A stretch of 64,000 bases of DNA from Spirochaetia bacterium. GTDB lineage: Bacteria; Spirochaetota; Spirochaetia; SZUA-6; Bin103. Numbering within the stretch: position 1 is the first letter of the stretch; each line of letters begins with the position of its first letter. Shown here piece after piece: positions 33,576 to 55,443 of this stretch. The notes under the pieces are model-generated. The model did not search any database, was not told the origin of the DNA, and worked only from the letters and a program-made list of their open reading frames with translations. Location of the stretch: the NCBI GenBank assembly GCA_965203905.1, contig CBDBDQ010000003.1, positions 31,707 to 95,706 on the forward strand. Direction: 5' to 3'. The position numbers were made by a program, and so were the translations under genes.

Positions 33576-33712
33576 CCGGAGATATGCAAAATTTTGGGAA
33601 TTAGATCCAATAATAACCAAGGAGGGGCGTCGTGGTGAATGATGCAATGCGACGGGATAGGCGGATGGAGTTGGTTCGGCAGTTGGCTCTGGAGGGGCGA
33701 AGCCCAGGCAGA

Positions 33713-33928
33713 TCAGCATTCTTCTTCGGGTGGCCACCTCTCCCCAAGAACCCAAGCGTAGAAATTCTCGTCCGTTGTCGCTGCCTGCCATATAGATTCG
33801 GCAATTTCAAGAGTGGGTAATAACCGGTTCCCAAGCCGACCTTGTGGCTCTGAGAGAGATCGCATCATCTCCAACACCTCCTCACAGAAAGCAGCATAGT
33901 TCCGATTCTTCAGGGAAGCATGATGCAC
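33713..33928 (-). CDS. Hypothetical small protein (possibly frameshifted at its 5' end)
   Basis: 71-aa ORF HHASLKNRNYAAFCEEVLEMMRSLSEPQ... An upstream ATG ORF (MPDRPIDTEDLGKAHRLI...) is in another frame. It competes with the plus-strand ORF 33632..33820. Confidence 0.3.
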   Translation of the reverse strand: MHHASLKNRNYAAFCEEVLEMMRSLSEPQGRLGNRLLPTLEIAESIWQAATTDENFYAWVLGERWPPEEEC

Positions 33929-34521
33929 GATCCGATGATCAGCCGATGAGCCTTGCCAAGATCCTCTGTGTCGATGGGCCGGTCAGGCATACGTGATTAT
34001 TGAGATCTCCTTACCCGTCGGCTTTCGGCGTCACGTGCTTAGCCAGCCGCTTCCCCTTGTTCACTTCTCTACTCAGCGACTGATAAGAAGTATCGCCTGC
34101 TGCTGGTACATGTGGCTGGACGCATGAACCGCAACAACTGTGTGATGCGGCTGCGGCTGTGTGCCTGTGCGCAGACCATCGCGCGCATCAGCAGGGTATG
34201 GGAGGTGTTTGATCTCCCCACGCAAGCTTCGCGCACCAAGCCCTAGCCGCTAGCGCGCGGGCGCCTTTCTCTTTCAGCCATTCAACCCCGTTCCCAGTAC
34301 CACCGTAGGCACCGCCACGCGCCGAGAACTGGCCTGCGGGCGGCTATCGCTGCCTGTGAACGGCCTGCTGCGCGCTTCTGAGCGTCGTGTTCGCAGCGCA
34401 ATCTGACTCGGCACCGCCTCGCACCTCTCCGGCGCCAGTCCGCCGGCCTGCTTCATGGCCCGCGGGAGCTGCCGGCGGCTTCCGGCCGCCTTAGGCGAGG
34501 ATTTGGGGCCAGGATGTCCGG

Positions 34522-35484
34522 TTGACACTACGGTCACAATCTGATATGGATACAATGTCGGCGGTCCACTGGAAGCGACGGACGGTGGCCTATCGGCCTG
34601 CCGATCACGGAAGCCATGACTGGTTGGAACGGAGCGCGGAGGTGTCTAAGGTGCCGATAGTTGACCTTTCCAGGGTCGGCGATGCCGCCGTCCTGTTGGT
34701 AGACAGGCTGACGGACCCCAACCAGAAGCGAGAGCGAGCCGACGCAAGGGCGTACGCCAAGCAGGCTCGTACGAGGTCTGATATCGAGCGACGATCGCTA
34801 CTCACCGAAGAGAAGGTGAGGGTGTCACGTCAAGAGAACGCCGAACGAATCGCGGCCAAGGCAGCGCGAAAGGTCCAGAAGAACGCCAGGCCAGATGATG
34901 TGTCTCCGGATTGGTACGCCCATGCACGCGAAAGGCTCTGGAACGTGTCGGACGAAGATTTGCAAGAAGTATGGGCTCACATTCTTGCTGGTGAGGTCAA
35001 CTCGCCAGGGAGCTTTTCCAAGCGAACGCTGAGTATCGTTGGGGACCTTGAAAAAAGAGATGCCGAGACGTTTTCGACCATGTGCAGGTTCTCTGTCACT
35101 CTTGCTGATGGAGAGATGTGTCCAACGATCTTTCGCGCAGGTGATCCGATCTACCACGAGGCTGGGATCGATTACGATTCTCTTATCAACTTGGCCAGCA
35201 TGGGTCTTATCAAGTTCGACGGCGTGAGCAACACTTCCTTTACTGTTAGAGGATCGGGGTACTATCCAGCATCGTACTTCGGCAGGCGTATCGATTTAGC
35301 GATCCCGACAGGCCGCGAAATCCACATAGGGCTAGGGCTGGTAAAGCTATCCAGAGCAGGAGATGAGCTGTTGAAGATTTGCGCTCTTGTCCCAATCGAT
35401 GGATATTTTGACTATATCTTGAACGAATGGAAGAGCCTCGGCGCGGAGGAAATCGTCATTCGGCCGCTTTCCGTGGGGCGGTAG
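34522..35484 (+). CDS. DUF2806-like protein
   Basis: DWYAHARERLWNVSDEDLQEVWAHILAGEVNSPGSFSKRTLSIVGDLEKRDAETFSTMCRF matches my recollection of the DUF2806 core (W..iLagE...PGsfS.RtL..l..L...eA..F). Confidence 0.6.
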   Translation: MTLRSQSDMDTMSAVHWKRRTVAYRPADHGSHDWLERSAEVSKVPIVDLSRVGDAAVLLVDRLTDPNQKRERADARAYAKQARTRSDIERRSLLTEEKVRVSRQENAERIAAKAARKVQKNARPDDVSPDWYAHARERLWNVSDEDLQEVWAHILAGEVNSPGSFSKRTLSIVGDLEKRDAETFSTMCRFSVTLADGEMCPTIFRAGDPIYHEAGIDYDSLINLASMGLIKFDGVSNTSFTVRGSGYYPASYFGRRIDLAIPTGREIHIGLGLVKLSRAGDELLKICALVPIDGYFDYILNEWKSLGAEEIVIRPLSVGR

Positions 35485-35532
35485 CTGTGGTTACCATCTC
35501 CGTGGGCATGGAGCCTCAATTCTCCCTCGTAG

Positions 35533-35850
35533 ACGATTCCGAACCGACAGCACCATCTACCGAGCCCGGGTTACCAGCCACTCAGCAGCATATGGGAGGG
35601 CGGTGACGGGGAGTTGCTCGACGAGATGCTCACCTTCTACCCGGTCATCAAGCCGGACCCGATCCTGGACGCCACCTACAACACCGGCCGGATCTGGGCC
35701 GGCACCCGCTGGCCGGTCACCAGCATGGACATCGACCCCCAGTACGGCACTGACATCGTGGCCGACAACCGGGAGATGCCGGGGATAGCCGACGAGTCAT
35801 ACGCAGTGGTGGTCTACGATCCGCCGCACGTCGGACCCCAGGAGGTCTCG
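35533..35850 (+). pseudogene. N-terminal fragment of an amino-type DNA methyltransferase
   Basis: SSIWEGGDGELLDEMLTFYP...ILDATYNTGRIW...VTSMDIDPQYGTDIVADNREMP...YAVVVYDPPH (motif IV DPPH). The sequence then loses similarity. No canonical start upstream of TTG 35614. Confidence 0.5.
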
Positions 35851-35997
35851 GAGATAGTAGAGGGCATAAATGCTGCTCTCCCTCGGTGCTTCCTCGTACG
35901 ACAGGTCAAGGAGCGGGCTGCCTTCGAGCCTCTCGATCACCTGCGCCTTGATGCCTCGGTCCAGGTCGAAGTCGAATCGGTGCGGGTCGTCTGTCAT
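35797..35997 (-). pseudogene. N-terminal fragment of an Eco29kI-like (GIY-YIG) restriction endonuclease
   Basis: MTDDPHRFDFDLDRGIKAQVIERLEGSPLLDLSYEEAPRESSIYALYYL resembles the N-terminus of that family as I recall it. It is truncated where it meets the methyltransferase fragment. Confidence 0.4.
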
Positions 35998-36143
35998 AGA
36001 CTGCGGATTGTACGGGCATCCGGGGGTGCCTGCCCAGTCCCGGATGCCGGTCCACCCGCCGACTGACACGCCAAGCCCGGCAGCATCCTGCGTGTGACTT
36101 CGGTATATAATTCCCAAAAGAAAAACAAACTGAGCCTATTGAT

Positions 36144-36911
36144 ATGGGCGTGAAGAAGATACGAAACGAGTTCCACGAGTATGCCAAGGGACTGGAGAGG
36201 ATCAAGCGTGACGTTGGGAAAATCATACTGAAGGCTAATTCTCAAACCACGGTAGAGGATCGACTTGAGGATATCATTCCGTGTCTAAAGCGTATTCTTG
36301 AGCAAGTCGTTTATGGGTGTCTGGTAATTCAGATACCAGTCTACGGGAAAGTGGTTTCTGCTCGTCGATGGCAGAACAAGAAAGCCAGTGAGCTTGTTAA
36401 GATGATAGAACTTGGGTTCTACCCGACTCCGAATCCGGATAAGGCGGGTCCATACATCAAGGTTACTAAATCAGTGCGCGATGGCGATGCTCTTACCCGA
36501 GAGCAATGGCTTACCGCCTGGGACTTCGCCAACCAGATTCAGCATGTTCAAAATCCCGCCAGTCCTAAACGTAAGCCGAATGCGAAGAAATCTCTTGACG
36601 ATGCTCTGAAGTGGACGCAAAGAACTATCAACTTGCTCAGTTTTCACTACATGATTACGAATGACCAGATATTCTCTGGGCAAGTGACTATGCAGCCGGC
36701 CAGCCCATTAGGACCAAGCGCCCAAGTCGCAGTCTTTCAACGTGTAACACCGTGGTCCCCGGTTCAACGCTTGCCTGATGGAAGTAGGCTCACCTTGCAA
36801 CGGAACGAGAACGGTGACTGGAAGGATGTTCAAGATCCAAAGGAAGGCGCGATAGCCGTTATGCCGTTTCATGGGATCTATACACATCGTGGTTTGGCAC
36901 GTCAGACCTAG
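36144..36911 (+). CDS. Hypothetical protein (low-GC cassette)
   Basis: 255-aa ORF. The TATAATTCCCAAAAG promoter-like motif lies 24-40 nt upstream. No family recognised. Confidence 0.5.
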   Translation: MGVKKIRNEFHEYAKGLERIKRDVGKIILKANSQTTVEDRLEDIIPCLKRILEQVVYGCLVIQIPVYGKVVSARRWQNKKASELVKMIELGFYPTPNPDKAGPYIKVTKSVRDGDALTREQWLTAWDFANQIQHVQNPASPKRKPNAKKSLDDALKWTQRTINLLSFHYMITNDQIFSGQVTMQPASPLGPSAQVAVFQRVTPWSPVQRLPDGSRLTLQRNENGDWKDVQDPKEGAIAVMPFHGIYTHRGLARQT

Positions 36912-37206
36912 GCTGTTTTGATAGCTGTTTTCTGGCAACGAGCTATTGTCGTTTTGCACAAGCTGTGATATGCTCTCCGGCATGTCAGAAGACTAGAAAC
37001 CCAAGCCGCGAGGCCGGCCGCCCACCAAGGACCAGACGGTGTTCGAGCCGTTGAACGTGGACCCGGTGCAGCTTGCCCGTGCGATGCTGCAACCACGGCC
37101 CGAGAGCCGTTCCAAGCCAGACAGTCAGAAGCCGTCCCGGTGAGGGCGATCCTCGTTCGCGGTTACTATTCGATATAATTCCCAAAATTTTATCGACGTT
37201 GGTCCG

Positions 37207-37479: not shown

Positions 37480-37668
37480 GACCATCTTCCCAGCATCAGA
37501 ATCCCCGTCCATCGTGATCCACGCTTCACCAACTCCGGGTCCGGGTTCGGGGGAGAGTTGAGAATAGGGCTGCGTGGCGATTTCTGCGATCAACCATCTA
37601 TATCCCCTTGACCGATTCGGCGAGCGGTGAGCATACTTCACCGCATGGCGATTTTAGACACTGCCGCA

Positions 37669-37965
37669 ATGGAGCGGCTGACCATTTCGCTACCGCGTGA
37701 GTTGCGGGCGAAGCTGCAGCGGATTGCGCGGGACCACGGCGCCAGCGAGGCCGCGGTGATTCGAGCAGCGCTGGAGTTTGGGGTGCCGGAGCTAGAGAGG
37801 CAGTTGCTTGCCGAGGCGACCAGCGGGCCGCGGTTCGACTACTCCAAGTCACGCCGCGGGCCGCTGGAGCTGGCGCGGCCGATCCTGGAGCAGCACGAGA
37901 CCGAGGCCGACCCGCCGCCCGAGAACGTGGCGGAGGCGGAGGACCATCAGACGCCGGCGGAGTGA
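37669..37965 (+). CDS. Ribbon-helix-helix (CopG/Arc-like) DNA-binding protein
   Basis: MERLTISLPRELRAKLQRIARDHGASEAAVIRAALEFG (beta-strand plus two helices typical of RHH), then an acidic tail. The ORF is open from 37627. Confidence 0.6.
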   Translation: MERLTISLPRELRAKLQRIARDHGASEAAVIRAALEFGVPELERQLLAEATSGPRFDYSKSRRGPLELARPILEQHETEADPPPENVAEAEDHQTPAE

Positions 37966-38145: not shown

Positions 38146-38217
38146 CGCCGAGTGATTTGCCACTTCCGATAACTGTGGTTCTGTCGTCCTCGGGATCGCC
38201 GCTTGCCTACGCCGTGG
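38146..38217 (+). repeat. Junction repeat, module A copy 1 (divergent)
   Basis: CGCCGAGTGATTTGCCACTTCCGATAACTGTGGTTCTGTCGTCCTCGGGATCGCCGCTTGCCTACGCCGTGG aligns with 45859-45941. Confidence 0.6.
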
Positions 38218-38469
38218 ATCCCTCCCCCCTGAAGCCGCCGGCCGTGATAACGGTGTCCGGCATGAGCACCGCCCTGGAAATCCTGATTGGTGCCGGCGGC
38301 ACGGTGGCCGCCTTGCTGGCCGTGCTGCTGCCGGTAATCCGGGCGCAGGGCTCAAACCTGCGCCGTTGAGCTGGATATACGCTACGCGGGGACCTGCGCG
38401 CCGATGTGGCATCGTTTGCGCGCCGACGTGGGCGAAGTGCCGCGACCTGCACGCGCTGAGCGATCGTGT

Positions 38470-38600
38470 GGCCCGCATCGAGGGTGCGCCTACGACCGGC
38501 CCTGGCGGCCCACCAACGGCTCGCCTGCAGCGGCACCCCAGGGCGGTCCCCCGGAGGCCACCGCCGAGTGACCTGCCACTTCCAGAGTGCTTCTGTTCAC
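38470..38600 (+). repeat. Junction repeat, long copy (modules C + A, copy 2)
   Basis: GCCCGCATCGAGG...CCCACCAACGGCTCGCCTGCAGCGGCACCCCAGGG...GGAGGCCACCGCCGAGTGACCTGCCACTTCC. About 85 percent identical to 39849-39980. Confidence 0.7.
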
Positions 38601-39078
38601 TGCGATCACCACCGCAAGCTGAGTTCCCCGTACGCGCGCGCTGCCCATACGAAGGCATTGACCAAGTTTTCGTAGCGGCGGTAGAGTGGCGTTCTAAGTG
38701 GCGGGGCTGTAGCCAGGTAGCAACTGACCAGGCCCGATACCAAACGTCAAATCGCCATCGCGGGCGTCGGCGTCCATACAGTGTGTGCTGCATACGGATG
38801 CGCGGGTCGCGCTGCTCGGTTGCATCAAAATGCAGGCGCGTGGGTTGACCCTGCGGGGCGCAGGGTGGTAGGGGGTTTGCCTATGCTGGCAATAGTACTG
38901 GCAATCGTAGGTGCGCTAATCGTGGTTGCAATTGACGTAGTGGTACGTTACCTGCAGTCCGATGATAGCCTACACAGCAGGCGGAAAGGACGGCTTTAAG
39001 TTCCGGTTGCAGGAACGCTGGCGCCGGCCCGGCGACTGCGCTATGGGTCCGATGCGTGTTGTGATGCTGTTAGTGGTG

Positions 39079-39126
39079 GGCTCGCCTGCAGCGGCACTTG
39101 CGGCGCCAGTCGAGGATGGTGACGCT
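39079..39126 (+). repeat. Junction repeat, modules C + B (copy B1), immediately 5' of the HEPN-like gene
   Basis: GGCTCGCCTGCAGCGGCAC then CCAGTCGAGGATGGTGACGC. Confidence 0.6.
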
Positions 39127-39137
39127 GTTGGCCCGCA

Positions 39138-39803
39138 ATGGAGGGTGTACCATACACAGTGGCTCGCGAAACTATCAATCCAGATCACCAGAGCGCGTAC
39201 CCGTTGCTCTTTTTGAATGTGATTCACTTCAAGGACGCAGCACGGTTAGTCGAGTCGGAGGTTTCCAGGTATCGCGCTGACCAGGGCTTGCAACATACCG
39301 AGGATCCTTTGGAGAGTTTTCCTAACAAGGACTATTGGATGTCAGCAAAGGCCGTATCACACTTTAACCTTGGAACTGCGTTGGAACTAATGATGAAGTT
39401 GGTTTTGGTTATCAACGGTACACCGGTTGGACAGACGCACTCACTGCTTGCACTGCACAATTCTCTGTCATCGAAGTGGAAACGACGCATGCAGGAAATG
39501 TTCAGCAAGGCAGAGAAGAATCATGGATTGTTAAAGTTTGTCCGAATTAGGCGTTCTGATGCGGCTGATCTACCAGATCCCGGCGACGATCGTGACGTCA
39601 TCGGGTTGAGAGGTACACTGGCGTACCTTGACGATGATGCTGTGCTGTCAAAGGCGCGATACCTATGGAAACATATGAGTGAAGGTAAGTGGCTGTACTA
39701 CTTGGATGACATTACAATTCTTACCGACTTAATTGATCAGGTATTAGCGAAACTAGTTGCAGAGAACCAGATTCCTGGACTGACGGTAGGGAAGCAAGAC
39801 TAA
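39138..39803 (+). CDS. HEPN-like protein (candidate RNase/abortive-infection type effector), low-GC single-gene cassette
   Basis: 221 aa. HFNLGTALELMMKLVLVINGTPVGQTHSLLALHNSL fits the HEPN helix pattern (..E..lK..l.....g....tH.L..L). No partner gene. Confidence 0.45.
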   Translation: MEGVPYTVARETINPDHQSAYPLLFLNVIHFKDAARLVESEVSRYRADQGLQHTEDPLESFPNKDYWMSAKAVSHFNLGTALELMMKLVLVINGTPVGQTHSLLALHNSLSSKWKRRMQEMFSKAEKNHGLLKFVRIRRSDAADLPDPGDDRDVIGLRGTLAYLDDDAVLSKARYLWKHMSEGKWLYYLDDITILTDLIDQVLAKLVAENQIPGLTVGKQD

Positions 39804-39848
39804 ACCTTTGGCCCTGGCACCCACGCCAGACTTGTAGAGGAGCGCGTT

Positions 39849-39980
39849 GCCCGCATCGAGGTGCGCTGAGCGGCCCCTGGCGTCCCACCAAACGGCTCGC
39901 CTGCAGCGGTGCCCAAGGGTGGCACCTCGGAGGCCACCGCCGAGTGACCTGCCAATTCCTATTAGACTGCTTCTGTCGCC
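39849..39980 (+). repeat. Junction repeat, long copy (modules C + A, copy 3), immediately 3' of the HEPN-like gene
   Basis: See 38470..38600. Confidence 0.7.
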
Positions 39981-40030
39981 TGGAGCGCTGTGCTGGTTCA
40001 CTTTCCGCCGGATTGATCGTCGAAATTAGG

Positions 40031-40915
40031 TTAGGGCGCTTGGTACGGAACGGACAGCATTACGGATGCCGGCACCCCTTCGGGCCTGCCCTTCGTCCGG
40101 GCATCGAGTTGCCGTTTCTCCAGTTGGGTCAAGTACGTCCGGCGTAGATCGTTCGGAGTAACCGGGTCGACGCCCGCCTGCTTGGCGATGGTGCGCACCC
40201 GATCCATCACCGCCTGGGCGGTCATGGCCTTCGGCTGGAGCTTTTCGCCCTTGGCAACCGGGCACAGCAGGGCTCCGGGCCAGTCGCCGCGGCGCGCGAT
40301 CCAGGCGCCGATCGCTTCCTTGCCGCCGTCTGTCGCGTAGACCTGCCGCTCGTCGTGGCGAATGACGATGGCCCCGGACACCTGGTCGTAGTCCGCGAGC
40401 TGCAGCGCGGCTGCTTGCGAGCGCTGCAGGTCGGCGCAGTAGAGTAGCGCGAGCATGGCTGCATCACGGGCGCCGATAAGATCGGTACCAAGCGCCGCGA
40501 ACAAGCGGCGAACCTCGTCCCGTTGGACGTATCGTCCTGCACGCCGGCGCGGCTGTGGCTTCTCGTTCCGTTGGTCCTCGACAGCGATCCGCGTCTTGTC
40601 GTCGACCAGCCCGAGTTCCCATGCTATGCGCACCGTACTCCGGACCCCCGAAAGCATGTGGTTGACGGTGCCGGCGGCGACGCCGCGGTCGAGCATGACC
40701 GAACGCATTTTTTGGACCTGCTGCAGGTCTATCTGCGACCAGTCGAACGCCGTCGCATCTGTGACGGCGTCGTCCGTGAAGATTGCCACTGCGCAGTCGA
40801 GTTCCCGTTCCATGCCGAGGCGTCCGGACGGGTGGAGGCGGTCGAGATAGACGGCAGCGGGATTCTGTACTGGCGCGGTGTTGCTGGGCGCGACCGACTC
40901 GTCCGCGGCTTGCAC
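40031..40915 (-). CDS. Tyrosine-recombinase paralog lacking the catalytic His/Tyr segment
   Basis: Aligns with the 24573 integrase through ARDAAMLALLY...RGDWPGALLCPVAKG...MTAQAV. It reads NDLRRTYLTQLEKRQLDARTKGRPEG where the intact protein has [42 protein letters not shown], about 16 aa shorter and with no GH....Y. Confidence 0.7.
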   Translation of the reverse strand: MQAADESVAPSNTAPVQNPAAVYLDRLHPSGRLGMERELDCAVAIFTDDAVTDATAFDWSQIDLQQVQKMRSVMLDRGVAAGTVNHMLSGVRSTVRIAWELGLVDDKTRIAVEDQRNEKPQPRRRAGRYVQRDEVRRLFAALGTDLIGARDAAMLALLYCADLQRSQAAALQLADYDQVSGAIVIRHDERQVYATDGGKEAIGAWIARRGDWPGALLCPVAKGEKLQPKAMTAQAVMDRVRTIAKQAGVDPVTPNDLRRTYLTQLEKRQLDARTKGRPEGVPASVMLSVPYQAP

Positions 40916-40925
40916 TTTGGCAGCT

Positions 40926-41324
40926 TCAGAAGCTCGCTACTGTGGCGGTCGACAAGCTCTGCCTTCCGGTAAGACTGCAACCTATCTCCGATTTTAGAAG
41001 AGTTCCTGCTCTCGTCTCTTCACCTCCGATAGCACGTTCGCGGCAGCTTCCCTCTCTACCAATAGAGAGATGATTTTGCTCATTCGTAGGCAGCTCGAGG
41101 CGCTCCCGAGATTCCTCCACCGAAGCAGGGAATCGTTTGTACGCGACGATAGCGGCATGTCCATCATTGACCACTTGTATGCTATGCGGGATGGCTTGGG
41201 AAGCTCGATACAGTTTTCCCCGAAATTGGTTGCACTTCTCCTCAAGGCTCGCCAACCGGTTTTCTGCCCGCCTCAGTTCCAGTAACAGATCGGCCATGTT
41301 TCTCTCGCGTTCGTCGTTGCTCAT
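40926..41324 (-). CDS. Hypothetical coiled-coil protein (low-GC) between the two integrase paralogs
   Basis: MSNDERERNMADLLLELRRAENRLASLEEKCNQFRGKLYRASQAI... The C-terminal extent is uncertain. Confidence 0.4.
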   Translation of the reverse strand: MSNDERERNMADLLLELRRAENRLASLEEKCNQFRGKLYRASQAIPHSIQVVNDGHAAIVAYKRFPASVEESRERLELPTNEQNHLSIGREGSCRERAIGGEETRAGTLLKSEIGCSLTGRQSLSTATVASF

Positions 41325-41473
41325 CGCTTCATCCTTTAGCTATCTTCTGAGGATCGCGGTCTTGAATACGATGGGTATTGACTCTGATCAAATGGCAGGT
41401 CACGACCAATAATCAGTGCGTCTCCTACAATATGATCTCAGCAGATATTGGAATGTGGCGGCTTCAGGCCGCC

Positions 41474-42454
41474 TCATTTCTTATAGCCTACGAGACGCAC
41501 CTCTGTCAACGCGGTACTTCGACTTCCGATAATCCGCTTCTGTCCCCTGGGAGCGCCGTGTGGTTTCACCCCCCGCTGGCTTGATTCTCGGATTTTGGCG
41601 CTTGGTGCTGAACGGATAGCACCCCTTCGGGCCTGCCCTTTCGTCCGGGCGTCGAGTTGCTTCTTCTCCAGCTCGGTTAAGTACGTCAGGCGTAGATCGT
41701 TCGGGGTAACCGGGGCGACGCCCGCCTGCACTGTGATGCTGCGCACCCGCACCATGACGGCCTGGGCGGTCATGCCCCGCTGTCGGATGCGTTCGCCCGT
41801 ACCGACGGGCGCCAGGAGTGCGCCCGGCCAGTCGCCACGGATCGCGATCCAGGCGTGGATCGCTTCCTTACCGCCATCTGTCGCGTGGACCTGCCGCTCG
41901 TCGTCGCGAACGGTGACGGCCCCGGACACCTCGTCGTAGTCCGCGAGCTGGAGCGCGACTGCTTCCGAGCGCTGAAGGCCGGCGCCGTAGAGCAATGCAA
42001 GCAAGGCTGCATCACGGGCGCCAATTGGATCGGTACCGGGGGCCGTCGCGAACAGGCGCCGAACCTCATTTCGTTTGACGTATCGTCCTGCACGCCGGCG
42101 CTGTTGCGGTTTCTCGTTCGGTTCGTCCTCGACAGCGATCCACGTCTTGTCGTCTACCAGCCCGAGTTCCCAAGCTATGCGCACCGTACTCCGGACACCC
42201 GAGAGCATGTGGTTGACGGTGCCGGCTGCAGCGTTGCGGTCGACCATAGCCGAACGCAGCTTTTCGACCTGCAGCCGGCTTATCTGCGACCAGTCGAACG
42301 CCGTCGCGTCTGTGCCGGCTTGGTCAGTGAAGATTGCGACCACGCGGGCGAGTTCCCGGCGCATGCTGCGGCGCCCCGACGGGAGGAGGCCGTCGAGATA
42401 AACGGCGGCGGGATTCTGGTCGCTGGGGGCGTCCGACTCGTCCGCGGCTTTCAC
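41474..42454 (-). CDS. Second tyrosine-recombinase paralog with the same internal deletion; the C-terminus differs through a 1-nt indel
   Basis: About 85 percent DNA identity to 40070-40900. NDLRLTYLTELEKKQLDARTKGQARRG... GTG at 42454 corresponds to the start of copy 1 (KAADESDAPSDQNPAAVYL). Confidence 0.65.
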   Translation of the reverse strand: MKAADESDAPSDQNPAAVYLDGLLPSGRRSMRRELARVVAIFTDQAGTDATAFDWSQISRLQVEKLRSAMVDRNAAAGTVNHMLSGVRSTVRIAWELGLVDDKTWIAVEDEPNEKPQQRRRAGRYVKRNEVRRLFATAPGTDPIGARDAALLALLYGAGLQRSEAVALQLADYDEVSGAVTVRDDERQVHATDGGKEAIHAWIAIRGDWPGALLAPVGTGERIRQRGMTAQAVMVRVRSITVQAGVAPVTPNDLRLTYLTELEKKQLDARTKGQARRGAIRSAPSAKIRESSQRGVKPHGAPRGQKRIIGSRSTALTEVRLVGYKK

Positions 42455-43178
42455 TTCGGCAGATCCAGAAGCTCGCTGCCGTGGCCGTCGACAAGCTCTG
42501 CCACCGTCTCGGTATCCCACTGTTCTCTCGAAAGCACCATGCCCGGCTTCGGATCCAACGCGGCCGCGGAGGCCGCGGCCGCCGGGACAGCAGACGCCGT
42601 AACAGGCCCGCGGTGTCGGCGATGCCAACGACGACAGCATCTCGCGGGTCTGGAATGTCGTCGCTGAACAGTACCGCCAGTTATACGCCGCTTCACGTCC
42701 CGGTCAGCGGCGAGATCGGCGGTCGGGTACCGCGGCGATGGGAACACCCACAGGAGAACCGCCCCTCGCGGCGTTGGAGAATGCCCTCACTCGACGATAC
42801 GTTCCAGTACACAGGCGCGGATGCGCTGGCCTTGATCGGCCGTATGCCGCACTCAGTAACGGGTGTCCCGCGCCTCTGACGCCTGTGCGATTTACGCGAG
42901 TGTCGGATCGAGAAGGTCTGGCGCAGGCGTCGCATCGGCCACGAAGAGCTGTTCGGTCCATGAGAACCGCACCCGCCAAGGGAGTAACGCAACGACCAGT
43001 CGGGCACCCGCGCGAACTACCAGCTTTCGGCATCCGCCAAGAGCCGCACTACGTAAATCTTGGTTTGGGCGGGCGGTTCGCAAAGCGCGCTTGGCCGAGC
43101 CGATGGAGACATTTGGTCACCACCTGTCAGCGTTCACTGTGTTCCGACCGGCGCCGTGGGCCTCCTCTCGGTTGGACA

Positions 43179-44936
43179 TTAGTAACCCATTGCTTTCTTC
43201 AGTTCATGATCGACCCAAAGTCGACTGAATACAACGTTGTATTGCCCTCGACCTAACGAGGTCTCCCCATTAAAACCCTTGATCCACGGCTGGACTACAG
43301 CAAACCGTGGCGCGATCGGACCAAACAACATCCAATAGCTATCGATACTATTCTGACCCAACTCTCTCATGATGGCGTTCTGCTCCTCGGCAGTAACCGG
43401 CTCGACACGTCGCTCCGCATCATCAACCACCGAATAGGTATGCAATGTATTCTGTATCCAGTCCGCGACATCAAAAGGGATCCCCTTATGTGCGGCCACC
43501 GCACTTATCATCTCGAATTCTCCCCTCTCTAAACGGTGATTATATCCTTCCTTGTCCAACATGACAACTTCAGCATCTACGTCGATCCCACTCCAGTATT
43601 CGGAAAGCAATTCCAGGTATTGCAAATCGAACACTCCTGAAGAAACCAACTCAGTCCGAAAGCCATCTGGATATCCTGCCTCGATGAGTAGCTGTTTGGC
43701 GCGATCACGATCAAATCTATAGCCGTCCTTCACCGGATCGCTCCACTCTTCGAATGGAACGATTGCTTCTGCAAGCGTCCTACTAAACAGTCCTTGCGGA
43801 ACTGTGTCTGCATGACCGCCGTACAACCTGTCGTTGGCCTGCTCAACATCTATCGCCATCTGCATTGCCATTCGCACTCTAATATCGCTAAATGGCGCGC
43901 GCTGAGTGTTTATCCCAACAGCATTCTCTGACCGTACGTAAAACACATGAGGCATGAGATGTCGGTGCTGGACCAGAAAGCCCTCAAGAACATGAAGGTC
44001 TTTTAGTTGAGAGTTTCCGATAGGACCAACGTAATCTATCTTTGCCGTACTAAGCGCTGCCAGACGGCTTTGCTCGTCCACAAGAACGAGCGCCCTCAAC
44101 TCATCGATATACGGCAAACGTCTGTTGTCCGCATCGAAGCCCCAGTAGTTGGGATTTCTTAACCAAGTAATCGAGCTTCCTTCTACCCAGTCAGTCAGAA
44201 CAAACGGGCCGGTTCCTAGGAGATTCTTCCAATCCGCTACATCACCGAACTCTTCGATAACCTCCGGCGGATATATCCAGGAGCTCCAGCCGTCGAATAA
44301 AAGGCGGAACGCGTGAGGATTAGGCTCCTCTAAACTGAACACAACTGTGTATCTGTCGGTTGCCTCGACAGATGCAAAATTCAGTCGATTTATGTCATAC
44401 TTCAGTTTGTCATCGCCGAGACCTAAAATGCGATGGAAGTTGTATGCGACATCATAAGCGGTAAGTTCGCGTCCGTTAAGTGGCGCCTTGTCATGCCATT
44501 GAACCTCCCTACGAACACTGACAACGTAAGTTCGCGGATCACGCTGCTCCCAGCTCTCCGCCAAGGCACCGGCTGTGTGCTCCTCGTGGTTGAGCACCTG
44601 AAAGTCGAAAAGGTCGCGTCCTAACGCCCAGTTTGCAATTCCCAGTTTCTCAACAACTCCCGAAATGTAGATATACGCAAATTGAGAAAGGAGCATATCA
44701 GTACCTCTGTTATTGTGTGCTAGAGCGAACGTGATTACACCGCTGTGATTCACCGTTGTCGGGTCCCATTCGCATGGCGATGAACAACGCCAATTGCAGC
44801 AGTCCGTAAAACAAGCATCCGACGAGCAGTAGACACCGTCATCGCGCTCCTCATCGCCGCTTGCACACAATACGGTGGTCACACAGAAAAAACATGCAAC
44901 AAGAGCCGTCTGAGTGTTATTCAGCAGAAATCTCAT
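43179..44936 (-). CDS. ABC-transporter family-5 (peptide/nickel type) solute-binding lipoprotein, orphan, low-GC
   Basis: MRFLLNNTQTALVACFFCVTTVLCASG lipobox. A Cys-rich segment. Then SBP_bac_5-like AESWEQRDPRTYVVSVRREVQWHDKAPLNGRELTAYDVAYNFHRILG... No permease or ATPase genes nearby. Confidence 0.75.
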   Translation of the reverse strand: MRFLLNNTQTALVACFFCVTTVLCASGDEERDDGVYCSSDACFTDCCNWRCSSPCEWDPTTVNHSGVITFALAHNNRGTDMLLSQFAYIYISGVVEKLGIANWALGRDLFDFQVLNHEEHTAGALAESWEQRDPRTYVVSVRREVQWHDKAPLNGRELTAYDVAYNFHRILGLGDDKLKYDINRLNFASVEATDRYTVVFSLEEPNPHAFRLLFDGWSSWIYPPEVIEEFGDVADWKNLLGTGPFVLTDWVEGSSITWLRNPNYWGFDADNRRLPYIDELRALVLVDEQSRLAALSTAKIDYVGPIGNSQLKDLHVLEGFLVQHRHLMPHVFYVRSENAVGINTQRAPFSDIRVRMAMQMAIDVEQANDRLYGGHADTVPQGLFSRTLAEAIVPFEEWSDPVKDGYRFDRDRAKQLLIEAGYPDGFRTELVSSGVFDLQYLELLSEYWSGIDVDAEVVMLDKEGYNHRLERGEFEMISAVAAHKGIPFDVADWIQNTLHTYSVVDDAERRVEPVTAEEQNAIMRELGQNSIDSYWMLFGPIAPRFAVVQPWIKGFNGETSLGRGQYNVVFSRLWVDHELKKAMGY

Positions 44937-44943
44937 CGAGAAA

Positions 44944-45219
44944 CTAGGATGATCCGCCATCATTATACACACCTATAATATGATCATTATCGATTCGAAG
45001 TACCTTGGGGGCGTCATTTTTGTTCTTGCCATACCAGTTGTAGACTAACAGAAATGTGTCATAGGGGCCCCGCCATAGTAGACTAATTTTAGCGTCAAGA
45101 GGGTATCTCTGTATCATACGAAAGAGACGACCGAATTCAGTGTTAGGAACGGACGTAAGGTCGTCTGAAATGCTCGTTCTAAAAAGGACTTCGACGGCGG
45201 TTGGATTCTCATCTGTCAA
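44944..45219 (-). CDS. Hypothetical small protein (low-GC)
   Basis: 91-aa ORF overlapping its neighbours at both ends. Confidence 0.4.
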   Translation of the reverse strand: MTDENPTAVEVLFRTSISDDLTSVPNTEFGRLFRMIQRYPLDAKISLLWRGPYDTFLLVYNWYGKNKNDAPKVLRIDNDHIIGVYNDGGSS

Positions 45220-45781
45220 CTTCTAAAAAAGCCTGGTAATGCCCCGCTCCTTTTGAAATGAAGTAGGCAGAATAAAACAATAGAGACCACATACATATCT
45301 TCAACACCAATTTACCGGTAGTGGAGCAAAACGGGCGCCGTAGCGGATGTTGTATACTGCACCGTCTCTTGGCAAAGAACAACCAGTAAGCCAGACAATA
45401 CAGAACCAAGAAGCACAATATAACGCCCATTCCGAGAAATACGTACATGTACACATCCCGAATACTAAGATCCGGTAATCTTCCTATTACGGAAAAGGTA
45501 TGAACGAATACGGTGTAGTCATTCGTGGTAAGGCTCGATCGCGGCACACCAAACCGAGCGAAGTACTCATTCCGATACCACCAGCCGGAAAAGTAGATGA
45601 GTGCGAGAAGAAATAGCCAGTCGGTTGGTGTTGTTCGTCTCACGGAATCGTGCCCGCATAGACGACGTCTATTCATCTGTAATATGTAGCGTCGTCCTCT
45701 TCGAAAAAGCCGTCTTGGGGGATTGCTCCAGAATGGGGAGTCGCGATGCCGTGCTTGATCAGCCGCAGTAGATTCTCTCAT
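45209..45781 (-). CDS. Hypothetical integral membrane protein (low-GC)
   Basis: 190 aa with at least 4 hydrophobic segments (WLFLLALIYFSGWW, VYMYVFLGMGVILCFLVLYCLAYWLFF, LKICMWSLLFYSAYFI). Confidence 0.45.
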   Translation of the reverse strand: MRESTAADQARHRDSPFWSNPPRRLFRRGRRYILQMNRRRLCGHDSVRRTTPTDWLFLLALIYFSGWWYRNEYFARFGVPRSSLTTNDYTVFVHTFSVIGRLPDLSIRDVYMYVFLGMGVILCFLVLYCLAYWLFFAKRRCSIQHPLRRPFCSTTGKLVLKICMWSLLFYSAYFISKGAGHYQAFLEVDR

Positions 45782-45858
45782 CAGTGATTCTAAGCTTAGC
45801 CGTGTTGGGGAGATTCGTCCAGAGGTCGACGGTTCGTCAAGAGCAGTGTGGATCCCAC

Positions 45859-45969
45859 CGCCGAGTGACCTGCCACTACCGATAATTCACACTCTGTCGC
45901 CTCACCCCGCGGGGGGATCGCCGCGAGCCTTGACCCCGTGGCACCAGTCGAGGATGGTGACGCCTGTGA
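45859..45969 (+). repeat. Junction repeat, the only contiguous A + B copy (A4 + B2)
   Basis: CGCCGAGTGACCTGCCACTACCGATAATTCACACTCTGTCGCCTCACCCCGCGGGGGGATCGCCGCGAGCCTTGACCCCGTGGCACCAGTCGAGGATGGTGACGCCTGTGA. Confidence 0.7.
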
Positions 45970-46444
45970 CCACGGACGAATGGGAGTGGAACTTGACCGG
46001 GTGACGATGCGGCAGATAGCGATCCGCGTAGGCCACAGCTGGACCAGTTCTACTACTTCCACCTGGACGAGTATGAGGTCTACCGGCGCTGGGAGAGAGT
46101 GCTGAAACGTCGCGCAGCAGCGATTGAGCGAGAACACGACCGGAGCGCGGCGTTCGCCGAGGCAGCCCACGCCAGCCGGACTTCCGGTAAGACTTGGCCG
46201 GTCGGCCAAATTTGAACGGCACGACTCATGAAGGACTTCTGGCCGAATTCTGTTCAGGCAGCGGACCCGGAAAGCGATCGCACGGCGCCAGCTCGCCGGT
46301 GCATAGGGGACGCGGCACCGTGACGCGAGCGCAAAAGCGCGCTCGGGACGCCGCCGAGCAGGCTTACGCCGAACGCACCTTGATTGCTTGCGCGCTACGC
46401 GACTTCGAGGCAGCCCGGCGACTACCCCGCGCGTCCACCCGTTG

Positions 46445-47200
46445 ATGTTCGTGTCGCCGGAGCGCGGGCGCTGCTGGGCGGCGCTGACCCTGGTGGCGGA
46501 GAGGAACACCCCCGCGCCACCGCCTCCACACTTGCTCGCCGCGGTGGGCGCCGAGCTCGCCGACGATGCGCCCGGCGTGGCCGCCTTACGCGGCGTCCCG
46601 GTGCACCGCGCCGAGACGCTCGACGGCACCTACTTCGCCCACCGCGTGGCCGACGCGCACAAGCGCCGAGTGTGGCGCCGGCGGATACGCAACGCGCACC
46701 GGTACGACTGGGGTTATGACTGGCGTGAAGCGCAAGCCGAGGCGCATAGGCGATCCGGCGCCAAGGCCGGGAATATCGCCAGCCAGTGTGCTGCAGATGC
46801 GGACCGCCGCGACCTGGCGCCGCTCTACCGTGCTGATGCCGAGCACCACGCTGCCGAGGCCGAACGGCTGGAGCGCGACGTAGCGGCCGCGCGCGCCCAG
46901 CGCCTCCTAGTGCGCCGGCGGTGGCGGATCGCGGGCCGGATCGCGGGCCGGATCGCGGGCGGTTGCGGCGCTGTGCTGCTGGTGCTGACGTTCGTGTCGC
47001 GCTGGCATTTGGACCTGCGCCGCGTGGTCAGCACCCCGTTGTCCGGTTTCGTGGTAGTGGCGTTCCTGGTAGGTGTCTTCCTGGTATCGTTCGGCGCCGA
47101 GGAAGGCGACCGGCGGTTCATGCTGGGCGGTGCGCTGCTGGCCGTGGGCGCGGCGGCACTGTTCGGCGCTTGGTGGTGCTGGTGGTGGTGCGCTCGATGA
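46445..47200 (+). CDS. Membrane protein with an Arg-rich coiled region and an internal 12-bp x3 tandem repeat
   Basis: MFVSPERGRCWAALTLV... RIAGRIAGRIAG is encoded by CGGATCGCGGGC x3 (46925-46960). The C-terminal TM segments resemble those in 9590-9780. The ORF is open from 46388. Confidence 0.5.
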   Translation: MFVSPERGRCWAALTLVAERNTPAPPPPHLLAAVGAELADDAPGVAALRGVPVHRAETLDGTYFAHRVADAHKRRVWRRRIRNAHRYDWGYDWREAQAEAHRRSGAKAGNIASQCAADADRRDLAPLYRADAEHHAAEAERLERDVAAARAQRLLVRRRWRIAGRIAGRIAGGCGAVLLVLTFVSRWHLDLRRVVSTPLSGFVVVAFLVGVFLVSFGAEEGDRRFMLGGALLAVGAAALFGAWWCWWWCAR

Positions 47201-47249
47201 ACGACTCAGCCTACGCGGTAGCGCGCAGCGTCCGGTAAACGGGTGTTCT

Positions 47250-47291
47250 GCGAGGCTTGACGCCGCGCCAGTCGAGAATGGTTACGCCTGT
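47250..47291 (+). repeat. Junction repeat, module B copy 3, overlapping the 5' end of the next gene
   Basis: GAGGCTTGACGCCGCGCCAGTCGAGAATGGTTACGCCTGTGA aligns with 45925-45969. Confidence 0.6.
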
Positions 47292-47670
47292 GAGGGCTGA
47301 CCGGCCGGGCGGCACCGTGCCCGCACCCGAGTACATCGAGACGGCCGACTACTTCGCCAAGGCGCTTGAGCTGTGCGGCCCCGGTGCCTGGATCACAGTC
47401 CAGGGTGCCATCCAGGTCATGCTGCAAATCGGTTGGAACACCATCGTCAAGGAGAAGGAGAAGGCAGTCTACTCTGCGGTCTACAAGAGGATGCGGAAGA
47501 CCAGGCGTCATCCAGCGCTCGCGTTGCCGATCGACATGAGCCGCAGCCGCGACGGCCTCTGGTGTAACCGTCCGGCTCTCTCGCTGCCACTTCCGGGAAG
47601 GCAATTTCTGACTACATGCTTCGGCGTCAAGGGGATACCTTCGCCAAGCGTCGCACAACGGCCAGAGTGA
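47257..47670 (+). CDS. Small winged-helix (HARE-HTH-like) protein, third paralog
   Basis: ETADYFAKALELCGPGAWITVQGAIQVMLQIGWNTIVKEKEKAVYSAVYKRMRK...ALPIDMSRSRDGLW parallels 10541..11461 (ALPINWSRSRHGLF). The start (TTG 47257 or ATG 47275) lies inside repeat B3. Confidence 0.5.
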   Translation: MTPRQSRMVTPVRADRPGGTVPAPEYIETADYFAKALELCGPGAWITVQGAIQVMLQIGWNTIVKEKEKAVYSAVYKRMRKTRRHPALALPIDMSRSRDGLWCNRPALSLPLPGRQFLTTCFGVKGIPSPSVAQRPE

Positions 47671-48412
47671 TGCGCGCATCGCCAGCGGCGCTGTGTGCAT
47701 CAGAAGTCGGCACACCCCTGCACTCGGCGGCCTCTTCCAGATTCGACCATGCCGTGTCCCGGCCATGAGTGTCCGCCTCAGCTTGCATCGCACAGCGCCA
47801 GGGCACTGCCGGTAGTATCATCCCGTGGCGCGCGGCGGTCTGTTCCAGCATGCTCCGGTCAAACTCGGCGTTCCAAGCAATCACCGACGAGGCATTTTCC
47901 AACAGCCGCGCCAACTCGGCGTGTACTGCGGGCCATGGCCGTGCTCCCATAGCCCGCAGTCGTGCACGGGTCAACCCGTGCACATCGCTGGCATCGCGTG
48001 GGATCGGCCCTTGCGGCAGACTCACGGTATTGAGAAGCACACACCCCGTGGTGTCGATCACGGCCACCTCCAGCACTTCGCTACGCCGGCCCAATCCGGT
48101 AGTCTCCGTGTCGATTACAAACACATCTCTACGATCCAGCAGCTCCCCAAGTGTCTCGGCCTGCCAAGGTGCTCGCGCCTTGCGTGAGTCCTGCGAAGCA
48201 GCCCTGACCGGCTCCGGGTCAGGGGACGGCGCGGGGGTGGGTTTCGGGCTAGGTTCGGATGAATCCCAAGGGATCCCGCCTGATTTCCAAGGTGCCGTCG
48301 CCCGTTGTGCCGGAGTACTCGTAGGCTTCACCTGCCGCAAGGCAGACCGGGTGAGCCCATAGAGCAGTAGCACGAATCCACCCAGGATCAACACGCTAAG
48401 GACTATGCCCAT
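47627..48412 (-). CDS. Membrane-anchored DEDDh 3'-5' exonuclease (DnaQ/epsilon-like)
   Basis: N-terminal TM MGIVLSVLILGGFVLLLYGL, a Pro-rich linker, ExoI FVIDTETTGL, ExoII VIAWNAEFD, ExoIII HSAAGDARITLAVV. Confidence 0.8.
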   Translation of the reverse strand: MGIVLSVLILGGFVLLLYGLTRSALRQVKPTSTPAQRATAPWKSGGIPWDSSEPSPKPTPAPSPDPEPVRAASQDSRKARAPWQAETLGELLDRRDVFVIDTETTGLGRRSEVLEVAVIDTTGCVLLNTVSLPQGPIPRDASDVHGLTRARLRAMGARPWPAVHAELARLLENASSVIAWNAEFDRSMLEQTAARHGMILPAVPWRCAMQAEADTHGRDTAWSNLEEAAECRGVPTSDAHSAAGDARITLAVVRRLAKVSP

Positions 48413-48840
48413 CCAGCTATCTTACTACGAGTGCGCTCCGCCGAAGAGCTGCACGGAAAGCGACCCGCTCGGGTGAGGCGTTTCCGACACCTCGTCGCCG
48501 TTCATGGACTCGTTGCCCTTGCAGCCGTGAAGCCGTCCATCTATCTGCCAACGTCCGGTAACTGCCGTTCTGTCGCCTCTCCCGTGGACGGTCGCCAGTC
48601 GGCCGCGGTGCCGCCTTCGGTAGTCCGCTTCACCGGCGGCTACAACGCTATCTGCTCGTCGCGCTGGAAGCCGGTCCACCGGACGCTTCCCGTGCCGTGG
48701 CGATGCACGTTGGCCGTTGTCGTGTGCCCCAGCCAACGCTCACGCATCCGCGTTTGATTCGAGGGTGATAGTTGCGATACTACCGGCCAGCGACGAGGAC
48801 AACGCCAGCGTCCTCCTACATAGCGCCTAAGGGAGAGGTG

Positions 48841-54440: not shown

Positions 54441-54453
54441 GCGTTTCACAGCA

Positions 54454-55067: not shown

Positions 55068-55090
55068 TGGTCACTCCGTTATCGCTCATA

Positions 55091-55264: not shown

Positions 55265-55443
55265 CAGCAGATCGTCTCCGCTCCTGATCAGTCATCGCCG
55301 TATCCTCTCGCCCCAACCCCATCATACCACAAACATGATAATTCCGCAACCCATCAAGATTTAGCGGACGGGACGGAAGCTTAGCTCAGGCTAATTTCAT
55401 CCTACGACAAGATGCGAACTTTGTCAACCGTCGCAACCGTCGC

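Follow-up and report, generated by a model that had tools for sequence, protein, structure and literature searches.

Directly repeated 28-bp dif-like sites bound the genes of a putative, decayed cassette array in a Spirochaetia-labelled contig

Organization of the locus

Analysis of a 64,000-nucleotide (nt) stretch of DNA from a Spirochaetia bacterium (GenBank assembly GCA_965203905.1, contig CBDBDQ010000003.1, positions 31,707 to 95,706 of the forward strand; called the window throughout) revealed a segment in which small genes are separated by copies of a 28-bp sequence and which resembles an array of gene cassettes. At least 10 copies of this site lie between positions 38162 and 48578 (10.4 kb), 10/10 on the plus strand, and no site of comparable strength was found in the other 53 kb of the window. 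Six copies are full sites, one carries a 4-nt deletion, one is weak, and two retain only the left arm (Table 1). The segments between the sites range in GC content from 0.51 to 0.71. They contain a single gene or a few genes, which point both ways, and many of these have their own promoter. From left to right, the cassettes carry an integrase gene that lacks catalytic residues (int1, dead integrase 1), an open reading frame (ORF) of 132 amino acids (aa) (orf132), a second dead integrase gene with low-GC cargo (int2), a small ORF (Z), an ORF of 270 aa (orf270), a gene designated Y, and an exonuclease gene. A further gene, X, is present in the window only as four decayed remnants, and one X cassette contains a low-GC ORF of 221 aa (GC content of this ORF's cassette, 0.556). 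The window copy of the array is decayed: X and Z are frameshifted, the end of Y is lost, two promoters are damaged, and several sites are half-sites.

An earlier note, made from the sequence alone, had described three recurring modules (A, B, and C) as parts of one composite junction at the cassette boundaries. A mismatch-tolerant scan placed module A (CGCCGAGTGACCTGCCACTTCC, at most 3 mismatches) at 38146, 38562, 39938, and 45859, and module B was found at 39106, 45944, and 47268; all copies are on the plus strand, and the expectation in shuffled sequences was 0.00 for both. Exact matches to module C (GGCTCGCCTGCAGCGG) lie on the plus strand at 38518, 39079, and 39894. These positions agree with those noted before, except that the last B copy had been placed at 47266. 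The earlier observations that A and B are contiguous only at 45859 to 45969, that every A copy contains the stop context GCCGAG TGA, and that the 221-aa ORF (39138 to 39803) is bracketed by B on the left (39106) and by C plus A on the right (39894/39938) were likewise borne out. A repeat finder recovered the same families and joined C and A of copies 2 and 3 into a single 69-nt unit with 88% identity; upstream of C, the repeat continues for about 50 nt more to the left as coding sequence. The list of A copies had been incomplete, as the core of A also occurs at 41522, 47589, and 48551, with partial copies at 40962, 46180, and 47228.

Table 1 Features of the cassette array and of other parts of the window
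Feature	Position	Strand	Description
intF, intact tyrosine recombinase	24576-25637	-	GLRRSE, GKGRKDR, HDLRRS, LAGH, and TQIY motifs; paralog of the dead integrases (44-47% identical); 12.5 kb from the array
Left part of A copy 1	38146-38161	+	Decayed last codons of X, TGA at 38152-38154, then TTTGCC
S1	38162-38189	+	ACTTCCGATAA CTGTGG TTCTGTCGTCC; box GGGATCGCCGC at 38192-38202
X2, frameshifted X	38262-38571	+	tblastn pieces in several frames; 81% nucleotide identity to X of L002
S2, inactivated	38578-38601	+	ACTTCC[4-nt deletion]A GAGTGC TTCTGTTCACT; spacer is that of the L002 site
C-B fusion, copy B1	39079-39131	+	X end, site, and part of the promoter deleted; -10 GATGGT at 39115-39120, -35 spacing lost
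Low-GC ORF, 221 aa (earlier "HEPN-like")	39138-39803	+	Between promoter B1 and the X 3' remnant; RYLWKH (Rx4H); no family
X4, 3' remnant with internal stop	39831-39946	+	..ERVARIE..NGSPAAVPKGGTSEATAE*; holds C (39894-39909) and the A3 stop
S3	39954-39981	+	AATTCCTATTA GACTGC TTCTGTCGCCT
Dead integrase 1 (int1)	40031-40915	-	XerC/D-like tyrosine-recombinase fold; without Arg-I (LQRS), beta-hairpin Lys, His-II (NDLR), His-III, and Tyr
Low-GC ORF, 132 aa	40926-41324	-	Coiled-coil-like; cassette 40991-41521; reads through S4; no family
S4, left arm only	40962-40990	+	CCTTCCGGTAA GACTGC(A)
S5	41522-41548	+	ACTTCCGATAA TCCGC TTCTGTCCCCT, 5-nt spacer
Dead integrase 2 (int2)	41636-42454	-	76.5% aa identity to int1; conserved int-upstream sequence on the right
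Low-GC cargo	43179-45781	-	SBP_bac_5 solute-binding protein (43179-44972); ORFs of 91 and 190 aa; same segment as int2
A4 with S6	45859-45902	+	Orphan X stop context at 45859-45874; S6 at 45875-45902, ACTACCGATAA TTCACA CTCTGTCGCCT
Box and B2	45914-45969	+	Box GGGATCGCCGC at 45914-45924; -35 TTGACC at 45930-45935, 17 nt, -10 GATGGT at 45953-45958, 7 nt, GTG at 45966
Z, frameshifted small ORF	45977-46190	+	..QLDQFYYFHLDEYEVYRRWERV..; common to L026
S7, left arm only	46180-46207	+	ACTTCCGGTAA GACTTG
ORF, 270 aa	46388-47200	+	Hydrophobic C-terminal part; cassette 46208-47227; no confident family
S8, weak	47228-47256	+	GCGTCCGGTAA ACGGGT(G) TTCTGCGAGGC; box deleted
B3	47257-47292	+	-35 TTGACG at 47257-47262, spacer cut to 14 nt, -10 AATGGT at 47277-47282, Y GTG at 47290
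Y	47290-47670	+	Family of about 100 aa ending ..YAYRPRV*; window copy lost its end and reads through S9 into the next cassette
S9	47589-47616	+	ACTTCCGGGAA GGCAAT TTCTGACTACA
DEDDh (DnaQ-like) exonuclease	47627-48412	-	Recurs in L025 and L026 at 95-97% nucleotide identity
S10, last of the array	48551-48578	+	ACGTCCGGTAA CTGCCG TTCTGTCGCCT
IS110-family transposase	53011-54297
CBASS-like pair	56372-57418; 57351-58592		Patatin; SMODS cyclase
McrBC-like genes	60118-63230
MT-A70 methyltransferase	63279-63977

Architecture of the 28-bp site

Comparison of the A copies with the flanks of both integrase paralogs and of the exonuclease gene exposed a 28-mer as the core of A. It consists of the left arm ACTTCCGRTAA, a variable 6-nt spacer, and the right arm TTCTGTCGCCY. 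All sequences examined were scanned with spacers of 4 to 8 nt allowed equally, and 31 distinct sites scored 19 bits or more. The spacer measured 6 nt in 24 of them, 7 nt in 5, 5 nt in 1, and 4 nt in 1; no spacer of 8 nt was found. The arm columns hold 1 to 2.4 bits of information and the spacer columns 0.05 to 0.7 bit, and the flanks hold almost nothing. Two arms of about 11 bp around a variable 6-bp centre are characteristic of core sites of the Xer/dif type, and the predicted layout of the 28 bp is that of a Xer/dif site.

Chromosomal dif sites predicted for Acidobacteria, Actinobacteria, and Firmicutes (Kono et al. 2011, supplementary table; PMC3025954) have the same 28-bp layout and have the inner right-arm motif TTnTGTC in common with the window site. 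The closest correspondence concerns Solibacter usitatus, whose predicted dif (ACTTCCGATAA CGAATA TTATGTCAACT; PMC3025954) matches at 11/11 positions of the left arm and at 8/11 positions of the right arm, although the right arm lacks the canonical TTATGTnAAnT. The predicted dif of Frankia alni (CACGCCGATAA TGCACA TTATGTCAAGT; PMC3025954) matches at 7/11 positions in the left arm and 7/11 in the right, with inner CCGATAA and TTnTGTC in common, and that of Acidobacterium capsulatum (ACGTCTGATAA .. TTCTGCATTTC; PMC3025954) has TTCTG in its right arm. In contrast to the predicted chromosomal sites (PMC3025954), the window site is multicopy and clustered, its outer right arm reads GCC instead of AAC, and its dyad symmetry is weaker. 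A chromosomal dif proper is a single copy at a skew switch, and at least 10 copies lie here within 10.4 kb. The site was rejected as a true dif at the replication terminus: a canonical dif of the TTATGT type was found in none of the sequences examined, and GC skew was uninformative.

Single-strand folding of six junctions, on both strands, was no better than that of shuffled sequences (z scores of -0.9 to +0.5). No inverted repeat was found at the sites, and no Rfam family reached its gathering score in the window. Since folding equals that of shuffles, a structured RNA or an attC-like hairpin was ruled out; a tRNA or tmRNA 3' end serving as an att site was ruled out as well, as no tRNA or tmRNA gene was found in the window. 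One further candidate site at about 42540 was rejected because it is the conserved int-upstream sequence.

Sites and similarity breakpoints in related loci

Scanning of genome contigs with module A gave 4 matches, and only two of these proved to be real relatives: L001, from a metagenome-assembled genome (MAG) labelled Spirochaetia, and L002, from a MAG labelled Chloroflexota. The same scan gave no matches in viral contigs and 3 matches in metagenome contigs, none with extended similarity. No DNA or protein match was found among 72,556 PLSDB plasmids; the relatives are metagenomic contigs and MAGs.

Site enrichment was determined with a matrix trained on six window copies only, in loci that were fetched via their proteins (X or dead integrase) and not via the site. 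Three sites each were detected in L001 and L002 (shuffle means, 0.2 and 0.1), 11 in L026 (0.7), 5 in L027 (0.6), and 7 in L028 (0.5). The unrelated control loci L003, L004, L005, and L007 gave 0 to 1 weak matches each. Sites shared one strand in 10/11 cases in L026, 4/5 in L035, 5/7 in L028, 3/3 in L001, and 3/3 in L002. L027 (104 kb) and L028 (69 kb) are circular contigs in which toxin-antitoxin genes are abundant. A locus represented by ten strains (L015 to L024) contains a strong site, ACTTCCGATAA GGGTAC TTCTGTCGCTC, between an ABC-transporter operon and an X promoter.

The exonuclease DNA recurs with 95% identity in L025 (a circular contig of 5.3 Mb), where its neighbours are entirely different, and with 97% identity in L026, a 51.6-kb contig; other contigs also contribute members to the 90% cluster of the protein. 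In the three contexts, the unusual right arm TTCTGACTACA and everything downstream of it are common, and the left arm, the spacer, and the upstream DNA differ. The window has the left arm and spacer ACTTCCGGGAA GGCAAT, preceded by Y; L026 has AGTGCCGATAT GGCGGT, preceded by the end of an X gene; and L025 has GCTGGGGTAAG GCAAGT. The dead-integrase cassette revealed the same pattern in five contexts (two in the window, two in L026, and one in L032), with the right arm and downstream DNA kept and upstream DNA differing; in L026 and L032 the similarity begins at 39969 to 39971, within S3. The Z block (45977 to 46190), common to L026, ends on the last base of the S7 left arm. Both sites that flank the int1 cassette have the spacer GACTGC. 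Cassette order also differs between the loci, L026 having int ... exonuclease, then B.. X ... int, Z. These apparent breakpoint patterns are expected of tyrosine-recombinase exchange at the central region of the site and not of conserved untranslated regions.

Modules A, B, and C and the genes X and Y

Modules A, B, and C are of three different kinds and do not form one element. Module C, together with the GCCGAGTGA of A, makes up the C-terminal codons and the stop of X, a small gene of about 83 aa with one membrane helix and a coiled coil, in the 3' coding end of which C lies. L001 contains an intact X of 82 aa with an N-terminal hydrophobic helix and a coiled-coil-like C-terminal half. In L002, modules C, A, and B are contiguous: the upstream ORF ends in ...LAERVARVEGALTGPWRPTNGSPAAAPKGPPEATAE-TGA, which corresponds to C plus the first 10 nt of A, and this X end is followed by about 80 intergenic nt (the rest of A), B, and a Y homolog. 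The post-stop context of 38146 to 38161 is also found after the intact X genes of L001 and L002, and module C of the frameshifted X2 (38518 to 38533) encodes ..NGSPAA... The search with the X protein yielded 105 clusters of 50 to 144 aa, nearly all from metagenome assemblies, and L027 has two X copies. No significant family was obtained for X, Y, the HEPN-like ORF, orf132, or orf270 in scans of Pfam, PHROGs, PADLOC, and PDB. A small membrane ORF of 54 aa that resembles X (MSTKAVAIVGAAVGLL..) was observed at 14350 to 14512 on the minus strand, with no dif-like site beside it; it lies directly upstream of a pentapeptide-repeat gene (13551 to 14348, minus strand) that has a 15-nt periodicity in 31 register-shifted copies.

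Module B is laid out as a -35 element TTGACG, 17 nt, a -10 element GATGGT or AATGGT, 7 nt, and ATG or GTG. It precedes the true X start (..GATGGTGACGCC(T/C)ATGAGTGCCGAG, encoding MSAEAIA..) in L015, L027 (twice), and L028 (once), and it precedes Y in the window, L002, and L028. We infer that B is a compact promoter with a noncanonical -10 element, which would give a leaderless or nearly leaderless mRNA since no Shine-Dalgarno sequence is present. The peptide QSRMVTPV, previously taken for a conserved N terminus encoded by B, arises only when the promoter is read as coding sequence; the actual start, ATG or GTG, follows 7 nt after the -10 element. Of the window copies, B1 and B3 have shortened promoter spacers, and B2 is intact but heads a frameshifted ORF. 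The fusion of C to B at 39079 to 39131 has a similar counterpart in L028, where C is joined to the box.

The box mentioned here, (T)CGGGATCGCCGG, follows the right arm in promoter-bearing cassettes (38192 to 38202 and 45914 to 45924 in the window, and in L002, L015, L026, L028, and L035), and in dead-integrase cassettes a related box, GGAGCGCCG, takes this place. The box might be a site for accessory binding or belong to the promoter region.

The C-A-B composite is a seam made up of the end of an X cassette, the site, and the promoter head of the next cassette, because the X cassette, apparently the commonest, would run from the right arm through the GGGATCGCCGG box, promoter B, the presumably leaderless X ORF, TGA, and CCTGCC to the left arm. 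The composite looks split because cassettes without X or B (dead integrase, exonuclease, low-GC cargo) adjoin the site. The proposal of a single element with P and P' arms was thus not upheld, since only 28 bp within A behave as a recombination-type site.

The Y protein is a probable winged-helix protein, as predicted by a structure model of moderate quality (pLDDT, 62) with winged-helix matches that were only nonsignificant. An entire Y gene (101 aa) with box and promoter is placed exactly between the L028 sites at 4507 to 4535 and 4900 to 4927. A domain of a 346-aa ORF (10541 to 11581, minus strand; domain at 11027 to 11269) is 44% identical to Y, so the Y fold also exists outside the array, within a larger protein.

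Integrases of the window

Two integrase paralogs on the minus strand to the right of the third A copy, assigned to Pfam family PF00589, had been noted before and regarded as catalytically doubtful. Both indeed lack catalytic residues. Their best models were XerC, XerD, and XerA, with scores far below the cutoffs. The subfamily has GL(Q/L/K)RSE instead of GLRRSE, lacks the GKGRK hairpin, has NDLR instead of HDLR, and carries a deletion of about 22 residues that removes LAGH...TQIY. Relatives of int1 form roughly fifty clusters with 54 to 83% identity, and the 14 that were aligned (56 to 83%) all share the catalytic changes. The ratio of nonsynonymous to synonymous substitution rates (dN/dS) between int1 and int2 is 0.37, which indicates purifying selection rather than free decay. 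Judged by these predicted protein sequences, int1 and int2 cannot catalyse recombination. The suggestion that they act as the recombinase of the array was dropped accordingly, as the conserved subfamily that includes them has lost Arg-I, Lys, His-II, His-III, and Tyr.

The window also contains one intact tyrosine recombinase gene, intF (Table 1). Its product reaches 148 bits against a XerC cutoff of 335, and no xerC or xerD equivalog was found in the window. Full-length relatives of the intF type (L029 to L031) are located at the end of phage-like gene arrays on contigs of 66 to 71 kb, one of them marked circular, and no site was found within 10 kb of them. The intF-type integrase was therefore rejected as the cognate enzyme, and the sites were not assigned to this family. 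Beside intF, the segment from 26131 to 32275 has 70% GC and no Pfam hits, and the DNA at 26 to 32 kb of the window has homologous DNA next to the SSB and ParB genes of L035. Together, intF and 26131 to 32275 may form the backbone of an integrated element, phage-like or plasmid-like, of which the array is a part.

Discussion

The segment from 38.1 to 48.6 kb is probably a decayed array of small mobile cassettes with directly repeated 28-bp sites, exchanged by Xer-type tyrosine recombination. The general idea of the earlier note, an array that accretes single genes by site-specific recombination, is thereby retained; the anatomy that the note proposed was wrong in four respects. The layout of the sites, their clustering in a uniform orientation, their excess in loci selected by other means, their likeness to predicted dif sites, the breakpoints between spacer and right arm, and the decayed state of the window copy are observed. 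From the comparisons we infer the identity of the recombinase, excision and integration, the activity of promoter B, and whatever part X, Y, or the dead integrases may play. Two sites would be recombined by a Xer-type tyrosine recombinase acting in trans, for which the XerC/XerD pair of the host or a single enzyme of the Xer type is the likeliest candidate. Since the sites are in direct orientation, any cassette could be excised as a circle with one site. Such a circle would reinsert wherever a chromosome or plasmid has a site whose spacer is compatible, and repeated excision and reinsertion would build and shuffle arrays. More tentatively, and with less confidence than in the array itself, these loci can be seen as a new cassette system across phyla of uncultured bacteria, integron-like without an integrase of its own, in which X, Y, or the dead integrases may tune the host Xer reaction independently of cell division.

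Several observations weigh against the array of Xer-dependent cassettes. The right arm of the site is not that of a canonical XerD site (TTCTGTCGCC versus TTATGTnAAnT). The partial inner-arm dyad symmetry expected of a Xer/dif core is missing, the arms agreeing at 4/11 positions (AGGCGACAGAA, the reverse complement of the right arm, versus ACTTCCGATAA) compared to 7/11 in the Solibacter dif; a noncanonical right arm with so little symmetry implies that a different protein may bind it. No GC-skew switch was seen at the loci in two large contigs (L025 and L020), so that the sites are not obviously at a terminus; the window is ambiguous in this respect. Among the sequences compared, no circle, empty site, or sister-strain hybrid site was seen, and the multistrain sets L008 to L014 and L015 to L024 show no polymorphism at the sites. 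L026, on which part of the comparison depends, is a 2x-coverage assembly. The C-B fusion (39079 to 39131) and the low-GC 221-aa ORF inside the X cassette are illegitimate events, not site-specific ones. Finally, the differing spacers within the array would limit recombination between neighbouring sites.

The repeats could instead be leftovers of tandemly duplicated X genes, with conserved untranslated regions, and Y genes, shuffled by homologous or illegitimate recombination, the 28-mer being an inert conserved intergenic sequence. C and the start of A are indeed X coding sequence, B is the head of X and Y genes, X is multicopy (two copies in L027 and four remnants in the window), and the C-B fusion and its counterpart in L028 are plainly illegitimate junctions. 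Nevertheless, we consider this explanation unlikely: the 28-mer also bounds dead-integrase and exonuclease cassettes without X or B, it lies at the 3' ends of opposite-strand genes and keeps its orientation whatever the orientation of the genes, and neither a two-arm profile with a 6-nt spacer nor the match to predicted dif sites is expected of an untranslated region. The earlier note had named paralogous gene ends as the finding that would overturn its reading. Part of the repeat is such a gene end, but its boundaries do correlate with insertion borders in related loci. It is quite unlikely, too, that the sites serve a dedicated non-Xer integrase, for example of the intF family, on an integron-like platform with the dead integrases as site-binding accessory or regulatory subunits. 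An intact paralog is encoded 12.5 kb away, the dead integrases are conserved under purifying selection (dN/dS, 0.37) and always lie beside a site, and the strongly conserved noncanonical right arm suggests a specialised binding protein. However, the full-length relatives in L029 to L031 belong to phage-like arrays and have no site less than 10 kb away, the arrays in L001, L002, L027, and L028 have no adjoining integrase, and the left arm is identical to a predicted XerC arm.

An operator or promoter-proximal element of promoter B, bound, for example, by Y or by the ribbon-helix-helix protein encoded at 37627 to 37965, would account for the position of the site 40 to 70 nt upstream of B in intact cassettes (L015, L002, L028, and S6 of the window) and would fit the resemblance of Y to a winged-helix DNA-binding protein. 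This is very improbable, as half of the window sites have no B downstream, S3, S5, and S9 face the 3' ends of convergent genes, the similarity breakpoints fall inside the 28-mer, and a variable 6-nt centre between nonsymmetrical arms is unusual for an operator. That the 28-mer is a dispersed repeat of the repetitive extragenic palindrome (REP) or miniature inverted-repeat transposable element (MITE) type, or a folded integron site of the attC type, is hardly credible. The element is short, multicopy, and intergenic, but it does not fold better than shuffles, has no Rfam match and no inverted-repeat structure, and no IntI-type integrase was found (integron model, 80 bits versus a cutoff of 265). 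Within the 64-kb window the sites form a single cluster of 10 kb, and elsewhere they also occur in arrays, so the genome-wide REP/MITE explanation, which the earlier note had listed as a possible refutation, does not fully apply.

Among known systems, the array of putative Xer cassettes most resembles the dif modules of Acinetobacter plasmids (PMC13141974, PMC6449649). Like the window, these consist of small modules of one or a few genes (often toxin-antitoxin genes, as in the related loci) without their own recombinase, bounded by 28-bp sites composed of a XerC arm, a 6-bp spacer, and a XerD arm. They are moved between replicons by XerC/XerD, spacer identity matters, and degraded sites fuse modules, features that the present array would share. 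From 38190 to 48550, modules likewise lie between sites without a functional recombinase, the integrases inside being dead. In Acinetobacter, the orientation of pdif sites alternates, which gives C and D modules, modules of the "CD" type with direct flanking sites are exceptional (PMC13141974), and single standard modules are not excisable alone. In contrast, the window sites are all direct and do not follow the C/D alternation, the right arm is the noncanonical TTCTGTCGCC, many cassettes have a conserved promoter head, the host bacteria are uncultured and high in GC (MAGs labelled Chloroflexota, Spirochaetia, and others), and the arrays are located on a chromosome-like contig and on large circular contigs and, as judged by the PLSDB comparison, not on Rep_3/OrfX plasmids of Acinetobacter.

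Integrative mobile elements that exploit Xer (IMEXs), such as CTXphi, TLCphi, VGJphi, and the gonococcal genetic island, share with the window array the lack of an active recombinase, direct dif-like repeats, tandem accumulation, and an often degenerate XerD-side arm. They are phages, satellites, or islands that occupy the one chromosomal dif at the terminus, whereas the window units are single genes of 0.3 to 1.4 kb, their sites are found at several places in genomes, and location at a terminus is unsupported. Integrons also accrete single-gene cassettes of heterogeneous GC content, each excisable as a one-site circle. Unlike them, the window array has neither IntI nor attI, and its sites are 28-bp sites of the double-strand type, not folded attC hairpins: integron-integrase models reached 80 and 69 bits against cutoffs of 265 and 435, in intF only, and imperfect palindromes of 57 to 141 nt that fold as single strands, as required of attC, were not observed.

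Neither a cassette system of this form nor the site sequence was found in the papers on Xer, dif-like sites, cassettes, and IMEXs that were searched. To our knowledge, gene-sized mobile units that rely on Xer outside integrons have been limited essentially to Acinetobacter plasmids, the other users of Xer being whole phages or islands. If the proposed reading is true, Xer-driven cassette exchange would be a more general route of horizontal gene flow. The 28-bp signature enables a metagenome search for such arrays, and the array brings to notice a conserved family of catalytically dead tyrosine recombinases.

Other features of the window

The array sits in mobile, defence-rich DNA. To its right, a defence/mobile island extends from 53011 to 63977, with a transposase gene followed by CBASS-like, McrBC-like, and methyltransferase genes (Table 1); the distance from the array to the defence genes (CBASS, McrBC) is about 8 kb. 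Three 42-nt tandem repeats are located within it at 54755 to 54888. To the left of the array, a pair of 31-nt AT-rich inverted repeats (33588 to 33618 and 37161 to 37191; 90% complementary) brackets about 3.6 kb of low-GC DNA with a DUF2806 gene (34522 to 35484) and a 255-aa ORF (36144 to 36911). The segment from 33588 to 37191 resembles foreign DNA that was inserted, or a transposon bounded by terminal inverted repeats.

Near the left end of the window, 202 to 664 and 7466 to 7913 are inverted duplicates (75 to 79% complementary) that involve a hybrid histidine kinase/response regulator gene (203 to 2557). Histidine kinase/response regulator segments are 71 to 72% identical to a gene of the Chloroflexota-labelled L002 (4597 to 5742), a hint of the host lineage. 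The region from 2921 to 4945 encodes a GPP34-like domain fused to a cytochrome P450 in one ORF, an unusual combination, and a 339-nt tandem repeat at 16247 to 16910 is located inside a 925-aa collagen/LapA-like ORF.

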